Positions 1-42,971 of a stretch of 42,971 bases of DNA are shown in pieces. Location of the stretch: IMG/VR virus record IMGVR_UViG_2579778686_000011; one strand, 5' to 3'. Each line of letters begins with the position of its first letter. The first letter of the stretch is position 1. The translations under genes were made by a program, and so were the position numbers. The notes beneath the pieces were generated by a model. That model did no database searches, was not told the DNA's origin, and saw nothing but the letters and a program-made list of their open reading frames with translations. Source of the stretch: a virus. Taxonomy: Duplodnaviria; Heunggongvirae; Uroviricota; Caudoviricetes.

Positions 1-755
1 TTCAGTAAATACAGGGTTACTGATAGTGACACCAATTTCAAAACAACCTTCAGACGTATTAACGTTTGGTAATAACGTTTCCATTATCGCGTCCTCAACA
101 ATGAATTTTGTGATGCGGTGCCTGGTGCCTCCAGGTGACGTTAACCAGTTAACAATTAACGCCGGATACAGAGAATCCACCCATAACACTGTTTTTGGTT
201 TTAACTGTTCCGCGTGCGCTCAGCCGCATTCACCGCATCACAAAATTCACTTTAAAAAGGGCGGCAGAGCAGTCACGGAGTAAAACTGATACCGCCAAAC
301 GTCACCAGAAAATTGATAACAGAGGGCGTTGCAGCGGGGTTGTCACTTAAGCGTATGGTCAACCTGACAACTCGGTGTCCTCAACGGGGAAGGAATAACC
401 CCGCCATACTTACCGCCGCGCCATTTCGCGGGTTGCCACAACCGGAAGCGCACGGTCGAATTAAATTTAACGACACCGTACAGTGAGACGAACTTCGCCG
501 TGCGCTTTCGTGTTGTATGCCTGCTTTTAACCACGTCAGGCGAGGTGGTATCCTTCTTATCCCGAATAACCAAGAAGGAAATCTATATGACTAAAGAAGA
601 ATTTGTCTCTTATATTTTTGATAAAACGGTTGAAATGTATGCCGCTACTTACGGGTCCTGTAATCCTCTGAATAAACCAGAGGGGAAAGATGATTTCGAC
701 AAAATTTACCGCTTCTTGGAGGACCGCTATATCAAAAGGTTAGAGGACGCAGGGA

Positions 756-4234: not shown

Positions 4235-5305
4235 TTGATATGTGATATAACAATAATCAACCGTTCAAAAAGGAGCATTTATATGAGCAGGATGATAATT
4301 GATACAAATATTCTTTACTCACTAGTTGGTCTGTCGACAAACCAAAAAATAATTAACTCCCCTATAGATCAATTCAAATTATCCATTACGACACCATCAC
4401 TCATAGAAGTGATCTCTAAATATTGCAATGACTTAGGGGCTGTAAAAAAATGCATTAGCCCAATCATAAACGGAAATATTGAACTAATTAGCATTGGTCA
4501 TACTCCAATCTCAAATGAATTTCTTTATAGGTTGCATTTTTCAGACAAAATAGACGAAGTAAAAGATATTATTGATAATGTTAGAGCACTAAAAATATCT
4601 AGAGAGGCTGAGTTTTATAGGTTCATACTCATACTGGTTGTCTCTGGTTTGTTTGAGGTTATTAGAGAAGATGGATACAAGTTTGATAACGATGTACAAA
4701 ATCAAAGTCAACTTAGTCTTGTGCAGACTCTACTTGAATCTAATATGGAATTAATTTTAGACTTCTTTAAAGATGAGTTGCGGAATGGATATATTAATGG
4801 AAATGAGCAGCAATCAGCTTTGAAAGCTTTTGAAACCATGCTTATCGGACTCCTACATGCTTTTCATGTCAACTATCATATGATTAAAACTGACACAGTT
4901 AACATTTCCGGAAGCCAAGACAGACTCAAAAATCTGTATGATAGTATAAAAAATGATAATTTTGATAAAAAGTTTAAAAAATATATGGAGAATCCAATAT
5001 CCCTTGCCTGCAAAAAAAAACACGAATCAGTAGTTGATAACTACCTGAAAGAAATGGAGGAGGGGATTTCTGGCGCTCGTGGGCTTACTAAGAATTCGTT
5101 GAGCTTTCTAATGAGCAAGGTTGAGGATGCATATAAAAATGGTCGTAAATTACGAAAAAATGACATATTTGACTTTCTAATAGTTATTTCTCTAAATATG
5201 CCAGACACTTTGATTTTAACACTTGATAAAGGTTTTTTAAAAGACCTTAAAGATCTTCACCCTAACAGCTATAAAAAGTGTCTGGATTTCGGTTTTGTAA
5301 ATTAA
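4235..5305 (+). CDS. Split PIN-like domain protein in an AT-rich island (340 aa if started at ATG 4283)
   Basis: N-terminus MIIDTNILYSL matches the hhhDTNhh start of PIN/VapC nucleases; C-terminus NDIFDFLIVISL...DTLILTLDKGF resembles the distal PIN acidic strand; about 250 aa of Lys/Asn/Ile-rich sequence lies between. Confidence 0.55.
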   Translation: MICDITIINRSKRSIYMSRMIIDTNILYSLVGLSTNQKIINSPIDQFKLSITTPSLIEVISKYCNDLGAVKKCISPIINGNIELISIGHTPISNEFLYRLHFSDKIDEVKDIIDNVRALKISREAEFYRFILILVVSGLFEVIREDGYKFDNDVQNQSQLSLVQTLLESNMELILDFFKDELRNGYINGNEQQSALKAFETMLIGLLHAFHVNYHMIKTDTVNISGSQDRLKNLYDSIKNDNFDKKFKKYMENPISLACKKKHESVVDNYLKEMEEGISGARGLTKNSLSFLMSKVEDAYKNGRKLRKNDIFDFLIVISLNMPDTLILTLDKGFLKDLKDLHPNSYKKCLDFGFVN

Positions 5306-6165: not shown

Positions 6166-6376
6166 TTTCACATTGGCGAGGTAACGGTAGTTAAGTAGAA
6201 TGGCTGCGGGTGCTTGAGGCTATCTGCCTCGGGCATGAACACCAACGGCAGATAGAGAAAAGCCCCAGTTAACATTACGCGTCCTGCAAGACGCTTAACA
6301 TTAATCTGAGGCCAATTTCATGCTAGACACATGTAGGTTAGCCTCTTACGTGCCGAAAGGCAAGGAGAAGCAGGCT

Positions 6377-6532
6377 ATGAAGCAGCAAAAGGCGATGTTA
6401 ATCGCCCTGATCGTCATCTGTTTAACCGTCATAGTGACGGCACTGGTAACGAGGAAAGACCTCTGCGAGGTACGAATCCGAACCGGGCAGACGGAGGTCG
6501 CTGTCTTCACAGCTTACGAACCTGAGGAGTAA
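6377..6532 (+). CDS. hok: Hok/Gef-family type I toxin
   Basis: MKQQKAMLIALIVICLTVIVTALVTRKDLCEVRIRTGQTEVAVFTAYEPEE is collinear with Hok, including the TRK-LCE-R core; AAGGAGA RBS; in-frame upstream ATG at 6320 gives a mok-like leader; hok-like 5' UTR and 3' fold-back elements present. Confidence 0.85.
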   Translation: MKQQKAMLIALIVICLTVIVTALVTRKDLCEVRIRTGQTEVAVFTAYEPEE

Positions 6533-9744: not shown

Positions 9745-9820
9745 GGCCCTTTAGCTCAGTGGTGAGAGCGAGCGACTCATAATCGCCAGGTCGCTGGTTC
9801 AAATCCAGCAAGGGCCACCA
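9745..9820 (+). tRNA. tRNA with CAT anticodon (Met or lysidine-type Ile2), 76 nt with encoded CCA
   Basis: Acceptor stem GGCCCTT/AAGGGCC, GTTCAAATC T-loop, anticodon loop CTCATAA. Confidence 0.85.
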
Positions 9821-9920: not shown

Positions 9921-9997
9921 GCGTTGTTAGCTCAGCCGGACAGAGCAATTGCCTTCTAAGCAATCGGTCACTGGTTCGAATCCAGTACAGCGCGCCA
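9921..9997 (+). tRNA. tRNA-Arg (anticodon TCT), 77 nt with encoded CCA
   Basis: Acceptor stem GCGTTGT/ACAGCGC, GGTTCGAATCC T-arm, anticodon stem ATTGC/GCAAT with loop CTTCTAA. Confidence 0.85.
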
Positions 9998-10461: not shown

Positions 10462-10851
10462 ATACATATCTGGATTATCACCGGTTACGGTAAAAAGTGA
10501 TTGCTTACTGTTTTTGTGAATGGCATTGCAGCAGCCGGATAATGTCAGTGCTGGCTGACGGTGTGCTGGTGGCGGGTGTGGTGGTTGCTGCTTTCCCGTT
10601 GCTGAAAAAGAAAACGCCAGACTGTTAGCCGGGTATCAGTTAGCGGGAGAAATTTTTAAATACTTCACAATTCAGGCGGTTGACTGTTGTCTGGTTTGCG
10701 GGGAGTTTGTTAAAAGAAACTGGCATGGTGAATCCCCCTGTGCGGAGGGGCAATCAGCGAGTAGGTATATGGGATAATCGCGGATTCAGGTGCTGGTACT
10801 GAATTCACCGGGAGGCACCCGGCACCATGCAATGGCACATAGCGCCACTCT

Positions 10852-10880
10852 CCAGCCCCTCTCCGGAGGGGCTGTTTATA
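10852..10880 (+). terminator. Rho-independent terminator
   Basis: Perfect 8 bp stem AGCCCCTC-TCCG-GAGGGGCT followed by GTTTATATTGATTTT. Confidence 0.6.
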
Positions 10881-10908
10881 TTGATTTTGTCAGATGTGAG
10901 TAAACTCC

Positions 10909-11244: not shown

Positions 11245-11504
11245 TTAGTTTCCTTGTTTATGCCTTGCTGGTGATGTTCTGAAAAGTATAAATGATATTT
11301 TTGATTGTAAACCATAGAGCAGAATTATTTTTCTGATGTTGTTTATTGTTTATTTAAATGCAGGGTGGTTTATATCTCGTCTTGTAGTTTATCCATGCAT
11401 ATCTGCTTGATGATGAGGTTTTTAATTAAGGTATGGTTTTGTGTTTTTTCTGTATTACATGTCAGGTATTTTAAAGAATCATTTTTCAGATGGTGGAAAG
11501 AACC

Positions 11505-13358
11505 ATGGCATTTAAACACTATGATGTTGTCAGGGCGGCGTCGCCGTCAGATCTTGCGGAAAAGCTGACACATAAACTGAAAGAGGGCTGGCAGCCGTTT
11601 GGTAGTCCGGTGGCCATAACCCCTTATACCCTGATGCAGGCGATTGCAGCAGAAGGTGATGTGGTCGTCAGTGGTGCAACTGAGCCGGAGTGGTACTACG
11701 TCATCGTACTGGCCGGGCAGTCCAATGCCATGGCTTACGGTGAAGGGCTTCCGCTTCCGGATTCATACGATGCGCCCCATCCGCGCATTAAGCAACTGGC
11801 CCGTCGTAACACAGTGACTCCCGGTGGTGAAGTATGCGTATTTAACGACATCATTCCTGCTGACCATTGTCTGCATGATGTTCAGGATATGAGTACGATT
11901 AACCATCCCCGGGCTGACCTGAGCAAAGGGCAGTACGGCTGTGTCGGACAGGGCTTACATATTGCCAAAAAACTGCTTCCGTATATCCCTAATAACGCGG
12001 GGATCCTGCTGGTACCATGCTGTCGTGGTGGTTCGGCATTCACCCAGGGCACGGAGGGGACATTCAGCGAGTCCACGGGGGCCAGTCAGGATTCGGCTCG
12101 CTGGGGAGTGGGTAAGCCGTTATATCAGGATCTGCTTTTCCGCACGAAGGCAGCATTGCAGAAAAACCCGAAAAACGTTTTGCTGGCGATATGCTGGATG
12201 CAGGGGGAATTCGATATGACGAATGCCAGTTACGCCCAGCAGCCAGCAGCATTTCTTGCAATGGTACAGCAGTTCCGTGCTGACCTTGCCGGGCTGGCGG
12301 CGCAGTGTCACGGTGGAAGTCCGGCATCAGTCCCCTGGATTTGTGGCGACACGACATACGCGTGGAAACAAGAACACGGTACGCAATATGAAGTGGTATA
12401 TGGTGCATATAAAGGTAAAGAATCCCAGCAGATTTATTTTGTTCCCTTTATGACCGATGGTAGCGGAGTTAATACACCGACAAACAACCCGTCAGAAGAT
12501 CCTGATATTGTCGGGTCTGGTTATTACGGTTCGGCATCCCGAACGAACAAAAACTGGGTATCATCAAATCGCCCGACGCATTTCAGCTCATGGGCGCGTC
12601 GTGGCATTATTCCCGATCGTATGGCAACCGCTATTCTGAACGCAGCCGGGCGCACCTCAGCCTTCATCAGTGGTAAGGCACCGGAAATCAAACCCTCGCC
12701 CGGCGGCGACACGCCATCGGGTCCGTCTGCAGATACGTCCGTTCGCACAATCTCCCTGCTGCCGACAGCCGGAGAGGCTGCTGCGCAGGGCTGGAGCATT
12801 AAGAATGGCGGAATTCAGTTGTCAGATGGTGTATTTAAGATCACCAAGCAGAGCAATAAAGCCTGGTCCCTGACGCGCCCGGTGGATGACGCAGTCTCCC
12901 TGCTGACACGGGGTGGCAGACTGAGCTGTAAGTTTCGACTGTCAGGCGCACTGACCAACAACCAGTTCGGTCTGGGAATTTATCTGTATACCGATGTAGC
13001 GTTACCTGACGTCGTGGCGATGACCGGGACTGGTAACCCGTTCCTGATGTCGTTCTTCACCCAGACCACAGACGGCAAACTGAATCTGATGCATCACAAG
13101 AAAGCCGGAAACACAAAGTTGGGCGAGTTCGGGAATTACAGTAACGACTGGCAGACGCTGGAGCTGGTGTTCACCGCCGGCAGTGCCACGGTTACTCCGA
13201 AACTGAATGGAGTGGCTGGCCCGGCATTCCAGGTCATAAAAGACAGTCTGACAGTGGGACTAAATGCACTGACGCTGACGGATATTACCAAAAATGCAAC
13301 GTATGGCGTTGAGATAGAAAGTCTGGTGCTGGAGATAAATGCACCGGCATCATCATAA
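11505..13358 (+). CDS. nanS: Prophage sialate O-acetylesterase NanS-p-like protein (SASA/SGNH esterase N-domain plus C-terminal domain)
   Basis: [14 protein letters not shown] matches the GQSN esterase motif; size and position (downstream of the tRNAs, upstream of lysis genes) match NanS-p of Stx-type phages; alternative start ATG 11490. Confidence 0.75.
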
Positions 13359-15502: not shown

Positions 15503-16123
15503 ATGAAAGATCAAGATGTTAGGTTCGCGGTGCATCATAAGCTTTTGAAAGAATCGCATTTAGATCCAGACTGCCTTGTGGTCGATGAATTTTCCATATC
15601 CCTTGGCGCCAGTAGAGCAGACATTGCTGTAATAAATGGTGTTATACACGGGTACGAGCTCAAAAGTGAATATGACTCTTTGGAGCGTTTGCCTCTTCAA
15701 ATCAAGCATTATTCTTCTGTAATGGACAAGGTTACTCTTGTCGTAGCTGAGAAACATCTTGAGGGAGCATTAAAGTTAATCCCAGGTTGGTGGGGCGTTA
15801 AAACGGTTTCTGTTGGGCCAAAAGGCGCCATTCTTATAAAGCACATGCGTGGAGAAAAGCTTAATCGAAACCATGACACATTGATGCTCGCTCAATTGCT
15901 TTGGAAAGATGAATGTATCGACGTACTTGAACGATGGGGCTATTCCAAAGGAATCAAAAGCAAGCCCCGATTTGAGTTATGGAATATTATTGCGGAAAAT
16001 ATTCCAATAGCGAATCTCAGGCTTGAAGTCAGAACAGCCTTAAAGAAACGCGTAGGCTGGAAAGTTAAGGCTTGGCAGGCTGAGTCTGCGCCAACCAATA
16101 AAGCTGTTTCACGACTAACGTAA
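15503..16123 (+). CDS. PD-(D/E)xK-like nuclease-fold protein (206 aa), cargo gene
   Basis: Spacing of acidic and lysine residues (VVDEF ... RADIAVINGVIHGYELKS) fits a restriction-endonuclease-like D...D...ExK core; strong RBS; AT-rich context. Confidence 0.6.
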   Translation: MKDQDVRFAVHHKLLKESHLDPDCLVVDEFSISLGASRADIAVINGVIHGYELKSEYDSLERLPLQIKHYSSVMDKVTLVVAEKHLEGALKLIPGWWGVKTVSVGPKGAILIKHMRGEKLNRNHDTLMLAQLLWKDECIDVLERWGYSKGIKSKPRFELWNIIAENIPIANLRLEVRTALKKRVGWKVKAWQAESAPTNKAVSRLT

Positions 16124-17132
16124 TATGGTGCGTATGTGCAACTTTACGCCATTCTTTAGAGCCGCCAGATTTGTTAGCGCCTAATGATCTTTGGTAAATG
16201 TAATCATCCCCCCAACTAAATTTGGAACCAAAGACTTGATACTCTGGCGAACTAACAAGGGTAGTACATAAGTTTTTAGTTTGGCCCCATCCATTTCCTT
16301 TAACTGCGGTACCTTTTACAAAGATCCATGAGGTATCGTTCGAATATCTCACTGAGACATACTGAGACATGAAGCGTGGGTCTACGCTCGTAATGGTAGA
16401 GCTAGCGGTGGGATAATCACTAAAACTTGGCGTTCTTCCATTGCTAAAATTCTGTACTACGTGCATCCAAAGATCGTATTCATGGCGCGGAATATGATGA
16501 ACTTGATGTTGCGGTATCCCTGCCTGTGATGCTGGGTATGCGGTTGAAGATAAAATCAAGTTTCTCCACGGAGCTTGGCCTGATAATGTGTTGACCATGC
16601 TTAATGCTTGTTGTTTTAAACTATCAGTTGCGTTTTGAATATCTCCAAAATCAATGATTACATCAATTAAACTAGGATGAATATTTAAGTGGTTAACCAG
16701 ACTTGTGAATTGGTGCCATGTCTGGGGGGTGATAGATATAGCGAGCCCATTGATTAAGTTGCGTTGAACAGCATGTATATAGTTTGTTGAATATGCGGGA
16801 GAAACAACAGGGATAATTTCCTTACCATTTACTCTAGCATCTTGGATACACATATCTAGAGGATGATGGCGGCTCGAACCATGTTTATCTAAATATTTAA
16901 CATCCAGCAAAACAGGACGATTGGCTTTCCAGGATGCCGCAAGGTTAATACCGAAGTCAGATAAGTAAGAACTCAAACTCTTCTTGTAGCATTCGTTTTC
17001 ATAATCCCAGTCTATGTCTGGAATGGTAATGATCGGAGTAAAACCAGAGAGCGTAGTTTGATCTAAAAGCATCAGAGATTCATATTCAGCAGGCTTCCAT
17101 TTCAGCTGTGGATAATATTGATGTTGACTCAT
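16065..17132 (-). CDS. Uncharacterised 355 aa protein convergent with, and overlapping, the PD-(D/E)xK-like gene
   Basis: AAGGAG RBS 5 nt before ATG 17132; N-terminal motif YYPQLKWKPAEYESLMLL; 3' ends of the two genes overlap by 59 bp. Confidence 0.65.
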   Translation of the reverse strand: MSQHQYYPQLKWKPAEYESLMLLDQTTLSGFTPIITIPDIDWDYENECYKKSLSSYLSDFGINLAASWKANRPVLLDVKYLDKHGSSRHHPLDMCIQDARVNGKEIIPVVSPAYSTNYIHAVQRNLINGLAISITPQTWHQFTSLVNHLNIHPSLIDVIIDFGDIQNATDSLKQQALSMVNTLSGQAPWRNLILSSTAYPASQAGIPQHQVHHIPRHEYDLWMHVVQNFSNGRTPSFSDYPTASSTITSVDPRFMSQYVSVRYSNDTSWIFVKGTAVKGNGWGQTKNLCTTLVSSPEYQVFGSKFSWGDDYIYQRSLGANKSGGSKEWRKVAHTHHITLVVKQLYWLAQTQPAKP

Positions 17133-37688: not shown

Positions 37689-40600
37689 ATGACAGTAAAA
37701 ATTTCTGGCGTGCTTAAAGATGGCACAGGAAAACCAGTACAGAACTGCACCATTGTGCTGAAGGCCAGACGAACCAGCAGCACGGTGGTGGTGAACACGG
37801 TGGCCTCTGAAAATCCGGATGAAGCCGGACGTTACAGCATGGATGTTGAGCATGGTCAGTACAGCGTCACCCTGCTGGTTGAAGGTTTTCCGCCTTCACA
37901 TGCCGGGACCATTACCGTCTATGAAGGTTCCAGACCAGGTACGCTGAATGATTTTCTCGGTGCCATGACGGAGGATGATGTCCGACCGGAGGCACTGCGC
38001 CGCTTTGAGCAGATGGTGGAAGAGGTGTCACGTAACGCCTCAGCGGTTGCACAGAATACGGCAGCCGCGAAAAAATCAGCCAGCGATGCCAGTGCATCAG
38101 CCAGCGAGGCGGCAACTCATGCAACCGATGCTGCAGCCTCAGCACGTGCCGCCAGCACGTCAGCCGGACAGGCCGCGTCGTCGGCTCAGTCAGCGTCTTC
38201 CAGCGCAGGAACGGCATCGACAAAGGCCCGTGAAGCAGCAAAAAGTGCTGCTGCTGCAGAGTCATCAAAAAGCGCGGCAGCTACCAGCGCCAGTGCCGCG
38301 AAAACGTCAGAAACGAATGCCGCAGCATCACAAAAATCGGCAGCCACTTCTGCATCCACAGCGACCACGAAGGCGTCAGAAGCTGCCACCTCGGCACGGG
38401 GTGCGGCGGCCTCAAAAGAGGCAGCGAAATCTTCAGAAACGAATGCATCATCAAGTGCCAGTAGTGCAGCTTCCTCGGCAACGGCGGCAGGAAATTCCGC
38501 GAAGGCGGCAAAAACGTCCGAGACGAACGCTAAGTCTTCTGAAACAGCAGCGGGACAGAGCGCCTCAGCTGCGGCAGGTTCAAAAACAGCGGCTGCATTA
38601 TCTGCCAGTGCCGCGTCAACAAGTGCCGGGCAGGCCTCAGCCAGTGCCACCGCCGCCGGAAAATCGGCAGAAAGCGCCGCATCATCCGCTTCAACAGCCA
38701 CAACGAAGGCTGGCAAAGCCACTGAGCAAGCCACTGCAGCAGCGAGGTCTGCTTCTGCAGCAAAAACCTCTGAAACAAATGCAAAGACTTCAGCAGACAA
38801 TGCTGCTTCCTCTAAGGCGGCAGCCGCATCGTCAGCCAGTTCAGCGGCGTCATCGGTATCATCTGCGTCTGCTTCAAAAGATGAGGCGACCAGACAAGCG
38901 TCAGCAGCGAAAGGTAGTGCCACGACAGCAACAACGAAAGCATCAGAGGCGGCAGGCAGTGCGACGGCTGCATCTCAGAGCAAAGTTGCTGCTGAATCCG
39001 CGGCAACGCGCGCCGAGACAGCAGCAAAACGGGCAGAGGATATTGCATCCGCCGTGGCGCTGGAGGATGCGAGCACGACGAAAAAGGGGATAGTACAGCT
39101 CAGCAGTGCAACAAACAGCACCAGTGAAAAGCTGGCGGCAACGCCAAAGGCAGTTAAAACTGTTAAAGATAGTTCAGTTCAAAAAACTGGCGACACAATG
39201 GGAGGGCAGTTAAAAATCAGCACGATAAATGCTCTTCGAATATTCAACCAAGCCTTTGGCCTTATTTTTAGGCGTTCCGAAGATCATCTTCATCTTATTC
39301 CGACTAATGAAGGGGAGGGGGAAAATGGAGACATCGGTTCATTAAGACCATTCTCTATAAACTTAAGATCAGGGTTGGTGTCCATCGGTAATGGACTAAA
39401 AGTTGGTGGTAGTGTTACTGGTAATTTGACCGGAAACGCAGATACTGCGACCAAGATCAAGACAGCACGTAAGATTGGGGGCGTGGCATTTGATGGATCG
39501 GCAGATATCAACTTGCCTGGAGTCAACGCTACCGGTAATCAAAACACTACAGGTAATGCTGCGACCGCCACGAAACTTCAGGCAGCCAGAACGATTAACG
39601 GTGTGTCATTTGATGGTAGTGCAAATATCACATTGACCCCTTCAAATATTGGGGCATTGGCATTAACTGGAGGGACTCTTTCAGGTGGTTTAACTGCTGC
39701 TGGTGAGGTTATTTCAAGGTCAGCAAATGGTCTGCGTATTGCCTATGGCAACTATGGATTCTTTATCCGAAATGATGGATCAAACACATATTTTATGTTG
39801 ACAGATTCGGGTAACAGTCTTGGTACGCACAATAGCTTAAGGCCGTTTATAATTAGTAACCATACTGGCAATGTTACAATTGCAACTAAATTAAACGCGA
39901 GTGGTGGTATCACTGGATCTTTATCGGGTAATGCAAGCACAGCAACCAAATTGCAAACTGCAAGGACAATTAACGGCGTAAAATTTGACGGCTCGGCAAA
40001 TATTGAAGCGTTTCCGCCAGGTGTTCCGCTGCCGTGGCCATCAGATACACCACCTGCAGGTTATGCAATCATGCAGGGGCAGACGTTTGATAAGGCAGCA
40101 TATCCGAAACTGGCTATTGCCTATCCTTCAGGTGTTATTCCAGATATGCGCGGCTGGACAATCAAGGGCAAACCCGCCAGTGGCCGGGCCGTATTGTCTC
40201 AGGAACAGGACGGCATTAAATCGCACACCCACAGCGCCAGCGCATCCAGTACGGATTTGGGGACGAAAACCACATCGTCGTTTGATTACGGCACTAAATC
40301 CACGAATAACACCGGGGCGCATACGCACAGTCTGAGTGGCTCTACGGGGTCTGCCGGTGTTCATACTCATGGTAATGGTATTCGTTGGCCAGGAGGCGGC
40401 GGTTCTGCGTTAGCATTTTATGATGGCGGTGGGTTCACTTATGTCCAGAATTCACAGTATCAAGTAAGCCCGGAGACTTCTTCCTATAGATCGTATTATC
40501 AACGTATTCAGACACAGTCAGCAGGTGCTCATACCCACTCGCTGTCTGGTACTGCAGCAAGTTCTGGCGCACATGCACATACTGTAGGTATTGGTGCGCA

Positions 40601-40715
40601 TACGCACTCCGTTGCGATTGGTTCACATGGACACACCATCACCGTTAACGCTGCGGGTAACGCGGAAAACACCGTCAAAAACATCGCATTTAACTATATT
40701 GTGAGGCTTGCATAA
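37689..40715 (+). CDS. stf: Side tail fibre protein Stf
   Basis: Conserved N-terminus ([26 protein letters not shown]), long Ala/Ser-rich low-complexity shaft, C-terminal His-containing GAHTHS-type repeats. Confidence 0.88.
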
Positions 40716-41299
40716 TGGCATTCAGAATGAGTGAACAAGCACGGACCATAAAAATTTATAATCTGCTGGCCGGAACTAATGAATTTATTGGTGAAGGTGA
40801 CGCATATATTCCGCCTCATACAGGTCTGCCAGCAAACAGTACCGATATTGCACCACCAGATATTCCTGCTGGCTTTGTGGCTGTTTTCAACAGTGATGAG
40901 GCATCGTGGCATCTCGTTGAAGACCATCGGGGTAAAACGGTTTATGACGTAGCGTCAGGGGACGAGTTATTTATTTCTGAACTCGGTCCGTTACCGGAAA
41001 ATGTTACCTGGTTATCGCCGGAAGGGGAGTTTCAGAAGTGGAACGGCACAGCCTGGGTGAAGGATACGGAAGCAGAAAAACTGTTCCGGATCCGGGAGGC
41101 GGAAGAAACAAAAAACAACCTGATGCAGGTAGCCAGTGAGCATATTGCGCCGCTTCAGGATGCTGCAGATCTGGAAATTGCAACGGAGGAAGAAACCTCA
41201 TTGCTGGAAGCCTGGAAAAAGTATCGGGTATTGCTGAACCGTGTTGATACATCAACTGCACCTGATATTGAGTGGCCTGTAAATCCTGTCAGGGAGTAA
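40715..41299 (+). CDS. tfa: Tail fibre assembly protein Tfa
   Basis: 194 aa immediately after stf; N-terminus [39 protein letters not shown] as in lambdoid Tfa. Confidence 0.88.
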
Positions 41300-41350
41300 T
41301 CATTGGGATTATGCCGCAGCACGTCTTAAGCAAGAACGTGCTGCGGTTGG
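41136..41350 (+). repeat. Direct repeat copy 1 (~215 bp: tfa 3' end plus downstream hairpin)
   Basis: About 90% identical by eye to 42184-42399, including the CCGCAGCACGT...ACGTGCTGCGG inverted repeat. Confidence 0.8.
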
Positions 41351-41353
41351 ATG

Positions 41354-42022
41354 CTATTTTTTCCCTGAAGCGGAAAACATTACTACAGTACCTTGAACCT
41401 TGGTTTTAACATTCTCGAAATGCTCTGAGAGTATGTGTGTTAAGCCTTCTTCGGAATCTTTTGTGTTTGAAAAGATGCCTTTCTGATTGTAAATGCGCAT
41501 CAGTTTTTGACCGAAGCTATTGTGCACAACTCCATCGCCAAGAATTGTGGCTCCGTATAGAGTTCCATCGTCAGTTAAGGCCTGCGCCGCATTGCGTATT
41601 ACACAGCTTTTTGTAGATATATTTCCAGGCAGGCAGTGAAGAAGGTAAAACATGGAAATGGAATCAAATTGACCATGTAACGCCGCGGGATAAGGTTCAA
41701 AAACATCATGGCTAATTTTATGTTTAATTTTTGATTCCCCAGCCCTTGTAGATGCCGCGTTCAGGCTAGCTTCGTTCAAATCCATTAAAGATATCAGACT
41801 ACTCTCAGGTACGTGAGTAAGGTAAAACCCAGTTCCAACACCAATATCCAGATGGTTGTTACCTACATGTTCCAGAAAGTGTGGAAGAAGGTGTTCCTTT
41901 GTAGGACATCCCCATGCAAGCCGATTTGATACTCCCAAAACCCACCAGTCATAAAGCTTTAGGGTAAGTGGTGTGTAAATTTTAGCCCCATCATCTGTGT
42001 TTTTTTTCATTGATTTCACCAT
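41354..42022 (-). CDS. Class I SAM-dependent methyltransferase (cargo gene)
   Basis: 222 aa with motif I LDIGVGTGF; opposite strand to the tail genes; flanked by the direct repeats. Confidence 0.75.
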   Translation of the reverse strand: MVKSMKKNTDDGAKIYTPLTLKLYDWWVLGVSNRLAWGCPTKEHLLPHFLEHVGNNHLDIGVGTGFYLTHVPESSLISLMDLNEASLNAASTRAGESKIKHKISHDVFEPYPAALHGQFDSISMFYLLHCLPGNISTKSCVIRNAAQALTDDGTLYGATILGDGVVHNSFGQKLMRIYNQKGIFSNTKDSEEGLTHILSEHFENVKTKVQGTVVMFSASGKK

Positions 42023-42078
42023 GTTATAGTTTTATTTGTGAATTAAATCAATTATGGCGATGAATTACAAGGGGTTAA

Positions 42079-42348
42079 ATGCTGCCGCAGCATAGCGATA
42101 TTGAAATAGCCTGGTATGCTTCGATACAGCAGGAGCCGAATGGCTGGAAGATCGTCACCACACAGTTCTACATCCAGGAATTCAGTGAGTATATTGCGCC
42201 ACTGCAGGATGCTGTAGATCTGGAAATCGCAACGGAGGAAGAAAGATCGTTGCTGGAGGCATGGAATAAATATCGGGTATTGTTGAATCGTGTTGATACA
42301 TCAACTGCACCTGATATTGAGTGGCCTGCAAATCCTGTCAGGGAGTAA
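42079..42348 (+). pseudogene. Remnant 3' portion of a second tfa allele (89 aa frame)
   Basis: C-terminal 55 aa near-identical to the end of Tfa at 40715..41299; N-terminal part differs; far too short for a functional Tfa. Confidence 0.55.
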
Positions 42349-42399
42349 TCATTGGGATTATGCCGCAGACACGTCGTATGCAGGAACGTGCTGCGGTTA
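42184..42399 (+). repeat. Direct repeat copy 2
   Basis: See copy 1. Confidence 0.8.
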
Positions 42400-42633
42400 G
42401 TTTGTGAGCTTTCGATAGTGGTTGTTATTTTTGCCCTTATTTGTTCCGGAGGCCATGGTTCAATGGTCCGTCTGCCCCCTGTGGTGATGTCAGCAAAATC
42501 AGCCACTGCGCGAACCACAATAGCCCGGGAAGATGCTGAAGATCACCAGGTAAAGCTATCAGCGCAGAAACTGGAAGAACTGCTCGCATCAATGGTTAAG
42601 GATGAGGTTGATCGCAATGATGGGATTTATTGA
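42352..42633 (+). CDS. Hypothetical protein (93 aa frame; probably shorter)
   Basis: Open frame only. Confidence 0.25.
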   Translation: MGLCRRHVVCRNVLRLVCELSIVVVIFALICSGGHGSMVRLPPVVMSAKSATARTTIAREDAEDHQVKLSAQKLEELLASMVKDEVDRNDGIY

Positions 42634-42971
42634 CGTCAGCGAGAGCAGAAGGAAGAACTGAATAACCTGAATGATTTACGCTCAATCAGAGCGATGATGA
42701 TTGGCAGTAATTAGCGGTCAATTTCGGTTTTTTTGGCTGTGCGCTCCCCGCCCAGCATTGCGCGTCAATTAGCCCCAAAAAAACGAAAAAGTTACAATCA
42801 AGTAAAAAATTCCTTCTGCAAAACTAAAAAAGATTTCAATAAAATCAGACAGTTAAAAACATAAAAAAAAGGTACAAAAAAACATCTCAAAGTCTTGTTT
42901 TTTGCTTCAAATACAATTGGTTATTGTGTTTTTTGAAACCTACCAGTGTGGTACATGGATATCGATACCAC

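Follow-up and report, generated by a model that had tools for sequence, protein, structure and literature searches.

Why a gene for a solitary methyltransferase should lie between two direct copies of the 3' end of a tail fibre assembly gene, and how such an arrangement comes about, are the questions raised by the right-hand end of IMGVR_UViG_2579778686_000011, a 42,971-nucleotide Caudoviricetes record in IMG/VR (hereafter the window, meaning the whole stretch). The gene is of the type named ybcY in Escherichia coli K-12; it encodes a class I S-adenosylmethionine (SAM)-dependent methyltransferase of 222 amino acids (aa) and occupies the minus strand at 41354-42022, opposite in direction to the tail fibre assembly gene tfa. 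A preliminary description, made from the letters alone, had pictured ybcY as part of a cassette that entered by recombination between tfa genes and that the repeats could excise. We favour a different reading, to which we give a probability of about 0.7: ybcY is a moron (an accessory cargo gene), the repeats are the scar of an illegitimate replacement of a tail fibre module, homologous exchange came later, and the enzyme acts on a small-molecule or lipid substrate in the lysogen.

The two copies of the direct repeat lie at 41134-41348 and 42183-42398 and are 91.2% identical over 216 columns (BLAST). Copy 1 consists of the final 166 bp of tfa and the 49 bp 3' of it, hairpin included, and the offset between the copies is 1049-1050 bp, in good agreement with the earlier estimate of ~165 bp of tfa plus ~50 bp recurring ~1.05 kb further on. 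A repeat search paired 41123-41319 with 42172-42368 (197 nt, 90%) and 41320-41348 with 42370-42398 (29 nt, 90%). In a MAFFT alignment the similarity begins sharply at CAGTGAG (41134/42183); 170 of 185 positions are identical (41134-41318 vs 42183-42367), followed by an extra A at 42369, which is the single 1-nt indel, and then by 26 identities in 29 positions. The longest identical runs measure 40 bp (41240-41279) and 38 bp (41281-41318). Since 215 bp match at 91% identity inside a 3-kb region, the repeat is not a chance similarity. The methyltransferase is the sole complete gene between the copies.

Each copy ends in a hairpin. Hairpin 1 (41314-41346) occupies the gap where tfa and the methyltransferase gene converge and has an 11-bp perfect stem that continues beyond one bulged base; its RNA fold has an energy of -29.9 kcal/mol on the plus strand (z = -4.0) and -26.3 kcal/mol on the minus strand (z = -3.4). 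It is probably a transcript-end structure common to both genes. The 11-bp inverted repeat first reported for both copies is perfect in copy 1 only (41314-41324/41336-41346), whereas hairpin 2 (42363-42396) carries a 1-nt bulge at 42369 (CCGCAGaCACGT).

Copy 2 forms the end of an 89-aa open reading frame (ORF) on the plus strand (42079-42348), which had been taken for the remnant of a different tfa allele. That assignment holds for residues 32-89 but not for residues 1-31. The Caudo_TAP profile is matched over positions 76-130 of 131 only (residues 32-86), and the C-terminal 58-59 codons (42172-42348) are a tfa 3' stub of the tfaX type. The 5' part (42079-42171, plus strand) belongs to a small phage ORF family distinct from tfa: residues 3-37 match phrog_3893, an unrelated family of ~79 aa, and this N-terminal part also occurs apart from tfa, in phage Ayreon and Klebsiella phages (tblastn), with 18 of 36 residues (50%, E = 3e-11) identical to a 79-aa Klebsiella phage ORF. 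In-frame stop codons lie immediately 5' of the ATG, and the tfa stub is tagged as a pseudogene "missing N-terminus" in the annotation of E. coli WP4-S18-ESBL-09 (NZ_AP022098). Judged by these matches, the ORF is a chimera in which residues 1-31 derive from the small unrelated family and residues 32-89 from tfa, and at the inner edge of copy 2 (~42172) a small divergent ORF has been fused non-homologously to the interior of a tfa gene.

In 80 IMG/VR contigs with the methyltransferase gene, which we brought into one orientation and compared part by part, the chimeric junction of the 89-aa ORF is identical in every one. Because this non-homologous junction is the same in all loci, the duplication would go back to a single illegitimate event, and the proposed entry by recombination between tfa genes is not supported by the comparison. 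Where the flank is present, a constant core comprises the hairpin, the methyltransferase, the interval of 149 bp that leads to copy 2 (42023-42171) and the initial 132 bp of that copy. Of the 80 loci, 77 have the whole core, one has lost the stub by deletion and two lie on contigs that end early. Outside the core, homology to the window begins on the left at repeat positions 1, 32, 57, 80 or 192 and stops on the right at positions 132, 155 or 227, with different DNA thereafter. An intact 194-aa tfa precedes the methyltransferase in ~50 of the 80 loci and a tfa stub or the hairpin alone in ~30, and methyltransferase genes encoding 99-100% identical protein stand behind different tail fibre modules and ahead of different downstream DNA. 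In phage 2G7b the gene sits between two tfa stubs after an unrelated tail fibre module, and the tfaX-type stub is split.

These alignments suggest that the repeats most likely began as the scar of a tail fibre module replacement and not as the product of a homologous insertion. In the sequence of events that we propose, a module of stf (the side tail fibre gene), tfa and hairpin, together with ybcY and the small divergent ORF, would have been joined into the middle of a resident tfa by illegitimate recombination. What remained of the resident tfa would have been a stub of its last ~58 codons and its hairpin, joined to the 5' end of the small ORF, and the tfa 3' end would then have supplied homology for RecA- or Red-type exchange. 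The varied stub junctions, together with a DUF4376 stub further to the right, lead us to regard the prophage end as a stack of 3' stubs from successive replacements of tail fibre modules, copy 2 being one of these. Sloppy module joins leave stubs, and the stubs give homology for the loss, gain or re-linking of neighbouring cargo; the region is thus a clean and countable example of how lambdoid prophage ends evolve.

Empty sites bear on the later exchange. With a synthetic junction as query, in which the tfa end was joined directly to the DNA that follows copy 2, ~20 genomes matched tfa, repeat and downstream DNA in one unbroken alignment with the cassette absent, one of them at the same attachment site and with an identical Tfa; filled prophages at the ompW site number ~366. 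Phage lambda likewise has tfa and the hairpin followed by ea47, without the cassette. The methyltransferase is therefore accessory, in keeping with the cargo status given to it in the preliminary description, and not a conserved part of the tail fibre module. Of the four empty sites examined, two have a single repeat of hybrid copy-1/copy-2 type; the tfa of each resembles that of the window, and in one the Tfa protein is identical. In NZ_CP048934, whose prophage occupies the same ompW/yciE site and encodes the same Tfa protein (WP_000885578.1) as the window's genome, the single repeat is of copy-1 type at all differing sites through 41280 and of copy-2 type from 41319. In NZ_CP043406, where the upstream 1.8 kb are 99.5% identical to the window, the type switches between 41240 and 41280. 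The two switch intervals are the two longest identical runs of 38 and 40 bp, as homologous exchange predicts, and excision through the repeats is therefore plausible. The population pattern is consistent with loss or gain of the cassette by this route, and the conserved tfa 3' end, acting as exchange homology, would account for its presence or absence at the same prophage site.

Two other explanations of the repeats have to be weighed here. The cassette may have entered by homologous recombination between two tfa genes, with the repeats as the footprint of insertion. The tfa 3' ends on both flanks and the empty sites with hybrid repeats would fit such an entry; the variable ends of the copy 2 similarity (132, 155 and 227) and the 99-100% identical proteins behind different upstream sequences would fit a later transfer of the whole block. 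Yet the inner boundary of copy 2 is fused non-homologously to an unrelated ORF in the same way in every locus, and the upstream tfa stubs cut at positions 32, 57, 80 and 192 are non-homologous junctions as well, so we hold a homologous entry to be possible but doubtful. It is considerably less probable that the second repeat has been kept for a function of its own, either as a Tfa-like chaperone of 89 aa or as the candidate small RNA IS009 (Rfam RF02111). Most of the 80 loci, like the window, carry an intact ORF, which has a PHROG family to itself (phrog_2341), changes in the tfaX/ylcE transcript have been reported in mixed biofilms (PMC3646849), and IS009 matches fall on both copies: 224.5 bits at 41058-41256 (plus strand), above the gathering score of 117, and 112.8 bits at 42102-42305 (plus strand), slightly under it. 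However, the ORF is frameshifted, truncated or deleted in at least 12 of the 80 loci, one of which has lost it altogether, and has other 3' alleles in several; it contains an internal stop in K-12, is split in 2G7b and is gone in E. coli sequence type 131 (ST131). Copy 1 with the 76 bp upstream covers the whole IS009 model, but this candidate small RNA family is defined on the sense strand of the tfa 3' coding region; lying there, its conservation is explained by the protein, and the family probably reflects protein-coding conservation. An invertible segment, a transposon, an insertion sequence and an integron cassette were rejected: the repeats are direct, there is no recombinase and there are no flanking inverted repeats beyond the two hairpins.

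Turning to the enzyme, the preliminary assignment to the class I SAM-dependent methyltransferases is confirmed by profile classification, with scores above the cut-offs (in brackets) for four Pfam domains: Methyltransf_12 at 37.5 bits (30), Methyltransf_23 at 29.0 (27), Methyltransf_25 at 27.7 (27) and Methyltransf_11 at 24.6 (21.2). Motif I reads HLDIGVGTGF (residues 57-66), and D59, G61, G63 and G65 are invariant in 40 homologues. The protein falls in phrog_2132, a family annotated as of unknown function, and no NCBIfam equivalog matches it. Met5 is also invariant and most homologues have 218 aa, so that the real start is probably at 42010, giving a protein of 218 aa. An AlphaFold model built from the 40 homologues (predicted local distance difference test score (pLDDT) 90.5) has the seven-stranded beta-sheet of the class I fold, resembling solved members. 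The top Foldseek matches are juvenile hormone acid methyltransferase, phosphatidylethanolamine and phosphoethanolamine N-methyltransferases, SgvM and natural-product methyltransferases; by sequence the solved relatives are weak (juvenile hormone acid methyltransferase, E = 5e-6 by profile; UbiG, E = 8e-4), and a viral structure library returned generic methyltransferases only. The model thus points to the fold of a small-molecule or lipid methyltransferase, and we read the gene as H-NS-dampened cargo encoding such an enzyme.

The gene is widespread and under purifying selection. It is present in 3832 of 5426 complete E. coli genomes (71%) at 4877 places (identity of at least 95%), with up to four per genome, and its reading frame is intact in 80 of 80 viral-contig copies. 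The ratio of nonsynonymous to synonymous substitution rates (dN/dS) is 0.11-0.17 against relatives from Salmonella, Citrobacter and Enterobacter, and 0.17 against the copy in ST131. Homologues at 56-68% identity are found across Enterobacterales and beyond. In six neighbourhoods examined around homologues at 56-87% identity, no conserved partner gene accompanies the methyltransferase: the settings include Salmonella (between a PMT_2 glycosyltransferase gene and cybB), Enterobacter (by liv transport genes), Yersinia, Citrobacter (torS-methyltransferase-sodC, in a prophage remnant), a ccdAB plasmid contig and islands rich in insertion sequences. A solitary methyltransferase kept by purifying selection in ~70% of E. 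coli genomes is, to us, the point of real interest of this locus.

The cargo gene also differs from its surroundings in composition, with a G+C fraction of 0.39-0.45 vs ~0.5 in stf and tfa. Its promoter region would lie in the 56-bp spacer (42023-42078, minus strand for the methyltransferase) that separates it from the divergent chimeric ORF. In K-12 the ybcY/tfaX spacer is listed as a constitutive-promoter site of the RpoD holoenzyme, detected by genomic systematic evolution of ligands by exponential enrichment (SELEX), with H-NS also listed and the sequence TTGATT-17-TATAAC (PMC3946193). Both hexamers are also present in the window. In the mechanism that we propose, a promoter of its own in this gap would drive transcription of ybcY, against the direction of the late operon and as far as the tfa hairpin, and the enzyme would methylate a small metabolite, a xenobiotic or a lipid head group in the lysogen to the benefit of the host, acting outside both DNA modification and tail fibre assembly.

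Those last two roles are the obvious alternatives for the enzyme, and we consider each of them very improbable. Phages often carry orphan DNA methyltransferases, for restriction protection or an epigenetic role, and the class I motif I is common to these and to other methyltransferases. But motifs, family models and fold neighbours are all contrary: motif IV of the (D/N/S)PP(Y/F/W) or PC type is absent from the 222 aa, no DNA-methyltransferase family matches in Pfam or NCBIfam at E <= 0.01, and the top fold matches of the model include no DNA methyltransferase, which upholds the earlier caution that motif I by itself is no sign of such an enzyme. The alternative that the methyltransferase is a working part of the tail fibre module, modifying for instance Stf or Tfa, draws on its position next to tfa in thousands of prophages. 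It is opposed by the same tfa without a methyltransferase in lambda and ~20 E. coli prophages, by methyltransferase genes behind unrelated modules or mere stubs and in remnants without tail genes, by lone non-phage relatives in Salmonella, Enterobacter, Yersinia and Citrobacter, and by transcription antisense to the late operon. An anti-phage defence gene was also considered and rejected, PADLOC yielding only a negligible mad2 match (E = 0.009).

Several observations count against the reading of ybcY as a moron bordered by a replacement scar. The Foldseek matches are generic, at 13-21% identity and template modelling scores (TM-scores) of 0.55-0.66, and pinpoint no substrate. Hairpin 1 is a stem without a directly adjoining U-tract and was not called by a terminator scan, and the promoter-like minus-strand sequence TTAACC-16-CATAAT in the 42023-42078 spacer does not exceed shuffle expectation. 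The pseudogene in K-12 means that ybcY is dispensable in the laboratory. As regards the exchange, the hybrid repeats are ambiguous in direction, because deletion, double-crossover insertion and a swap of tfa alleles would all produce them; the suggestion that the repeats could excise the cassette therefore stands as one plausible route among several with the same product. Part of the "diagnostic" repeat sites are polymorphic among tfa alleles generally. The stf of NZ_CP048934, the best empty site, is only 95-97% identical to that of the window, so this genome is not a recent derivative and we dropped a reading as recent excision. In phage Ayreon (MF807953, 3250-3610), a tfa stub (copy 1) and the hairpin are followed by 36 bp of the methyltransferase 3' end and then by DNA corresponding to window positions 42049-42165 with a truncated small ORF: here ybcY was lost by a 659-bp illegitimate deletion and not via the repeats.

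A bolder version is that ybcY is a domesticated, selectively kept enzyme that methylates one specific host-relevant small molecule or membrane lipid, and that the tfa 3' end with its hairpin is a portable homology handle by which RecA- or Red-type recombination carries the gene from one lambdoid prophage to another in the same host. We offer this tentatively, and think it rather unlikely as a whole. Of the 71% of E. coli genomes with the gene, most have it intact, and the proposal would draw on this, on a dN/dS of ~0.15 and on the retention of the gene in remnants without phage functions. The phenotype would, on this view, have escaped notice because K-12 has only a pseudogene, frameshifted and bound by H-NS. 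In the literature ybcY, tfaX and IS009 appeared in gene lists only, and no paper devoted to the enzyme or to the structure of the repeats was found; the role of ybcY has gone unexamined in the papers found because the standard laboratory strain has a broken copy.

The arrangement itself is not new and is ordinary lambdoid mosaicism: tfa, methyltransferase and stub in this order are common and already annotated, as seen from the K-12 block, from the label YbcY given to the gene in phage PhiR26_1 and from the count of E. coli genomes above. The closest parallel is the block tfaD-ybcY-tfaX in prophage DLP12 of K-12, which has the same gene order and orientation, 96.5% DNA identity over 1465 bp and the same spacer. 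At the DLP12 position of strain W3110 the order is tfa' - methyltransferase (frameshifted) - tfa' (internal stop) - appY - ompT. Thus K-12 has a truncated tfaD, a frameshifted ybcY and a tfaX with an internal stop, and appY-ompT come next, whereas the window has intact tfa and methyltransferase genes in an apparently complete prophage, with the DUF4376 stub and the ompW attachment site after the block. In ST131 (NZ_CP103710, 3393-6283) the DLP12 remnant at tRNA-Arg reads int' - tfa' - methyltransferase (intact) - ompT, the tfaX-type stub being gone. The cargo genes of this remnant have outlived every phage function.

Other known systems resemble the locus in part. Lambdoid morons, a concept of Hendrix and colleagues, include lom and bor, which encode outer-membrane and serum-resistance proteins. 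With these ybcY shares presence or absence between related phages, lower G+C, a putative promoter region of its own, a terminal hairpin and probably a benefit to the lysogen, but it differs from them in having a duplicated stretch of the adjacent gene on its flanks. Tail fibre exchange is reportedly the subject of classical work on P2, Mu, P1 and lambda. As in the mosaicism of the tfaR, tfaQ and tfaE family, conserved tfa 3' ends occur in different prophages (at a median of 3 places per genome), module junctions are clustered and stubs are left over; the window differs in that a non-tail cargo gene is trapped between a live tfa and a stub. Invertible tail fibre segments, namely G of Mu, C of P1 and P of e14, have inverted repeats and an adjacent serine invertase (Gin, Cin or Pin). 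They are alike in having duplicated tail fibre or tfa ends in close proximity where the tail operon ends, whereas the repeats of the window are direct, a recombinase gene is absent nearby and the enclosed gene is a methyltransferase.

The locus forms the right-hand cargo end of a lambda-like prophage at ompW/yciE. The window matches NZ_AP022098 at 99.99% identity, with one mismatch in 8272 bp (BLAST), and in that genome the right end runs J - lom - stf - tfa - methyltransferase - tfa pseudogene - DUF4376 pseudogene - ompW fragment - yciE/yciF/trp. The intact tfa (40715-41299, plus strand, 194 aa) is of lambda type, with a Caudo_TAP match of 150.7 bits over the whole profile and DNA ~92% identical to lambda tfa. 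It follows stf (37689-40715, plus strand, 1008 aa), which has the Pfam domains phage_tail_N, Gp34_trimer, Collar and Phage_fiber and is annotated as a prophage tail fibre gene in NZ_AP022098. A long alanine- and serine-rich repetitive stretch in the N-terminal half of stf (37975-39093) gives rise to spurious long ORFs in other frames on both strands. To the right of copy 2, the tail-fibre-related gene stub with DUF4376 and an internal stop (42445-42714, plus strand) is identified by the NZ_AP022098 annotation and by tail fibre matches to phrog_1141 and phrog_7703, and an intact homologue, 72% identical, lies in the tail fibre region of some related phages, ~2 kb upstream of the methyltransferase. 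Standing beside the attachment site, this pseudogene is a third layer of tail fibre stub. The prophage right end, with the start of the ompW fragment, is at ~42937-42971 by the same annotation.

Elsewhere in the window, a 355-aa ORF on the minus strand (16065-17132) gives a full match to the Pfam family PF14350 "Beta_protein" (E = 1.8e-55); it lies antisense between other ORFs upstream and large plus-strand ORFs starting at ~17.5 kb, and looks like another cargo gene. A 622-aa protein encoded at 11490-13358 (plus strand) contains the domains DUF1737, SASA (sialate O-acetylesterase) and DUF6645, an architecture of the NanS-p-like esterase type that is frequent in lambdoid and Shiga toxin (Stx) prophages. 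Rfam matches above the gathering scores were obtained for DicF, sok and STnc100, and tRNA-Met (CAT) and tRNA-Arg (TCT) were called by ARAGORN and Rfam. Together these elements lie at 259-310 (minus strand), 6208-6382 (plus strand), 10694-10883 (plus strand), and 9745-9820 and 9921-9997 (plus strand), and are the usual small RNA and tRNA cargo of lambdoid prophages.

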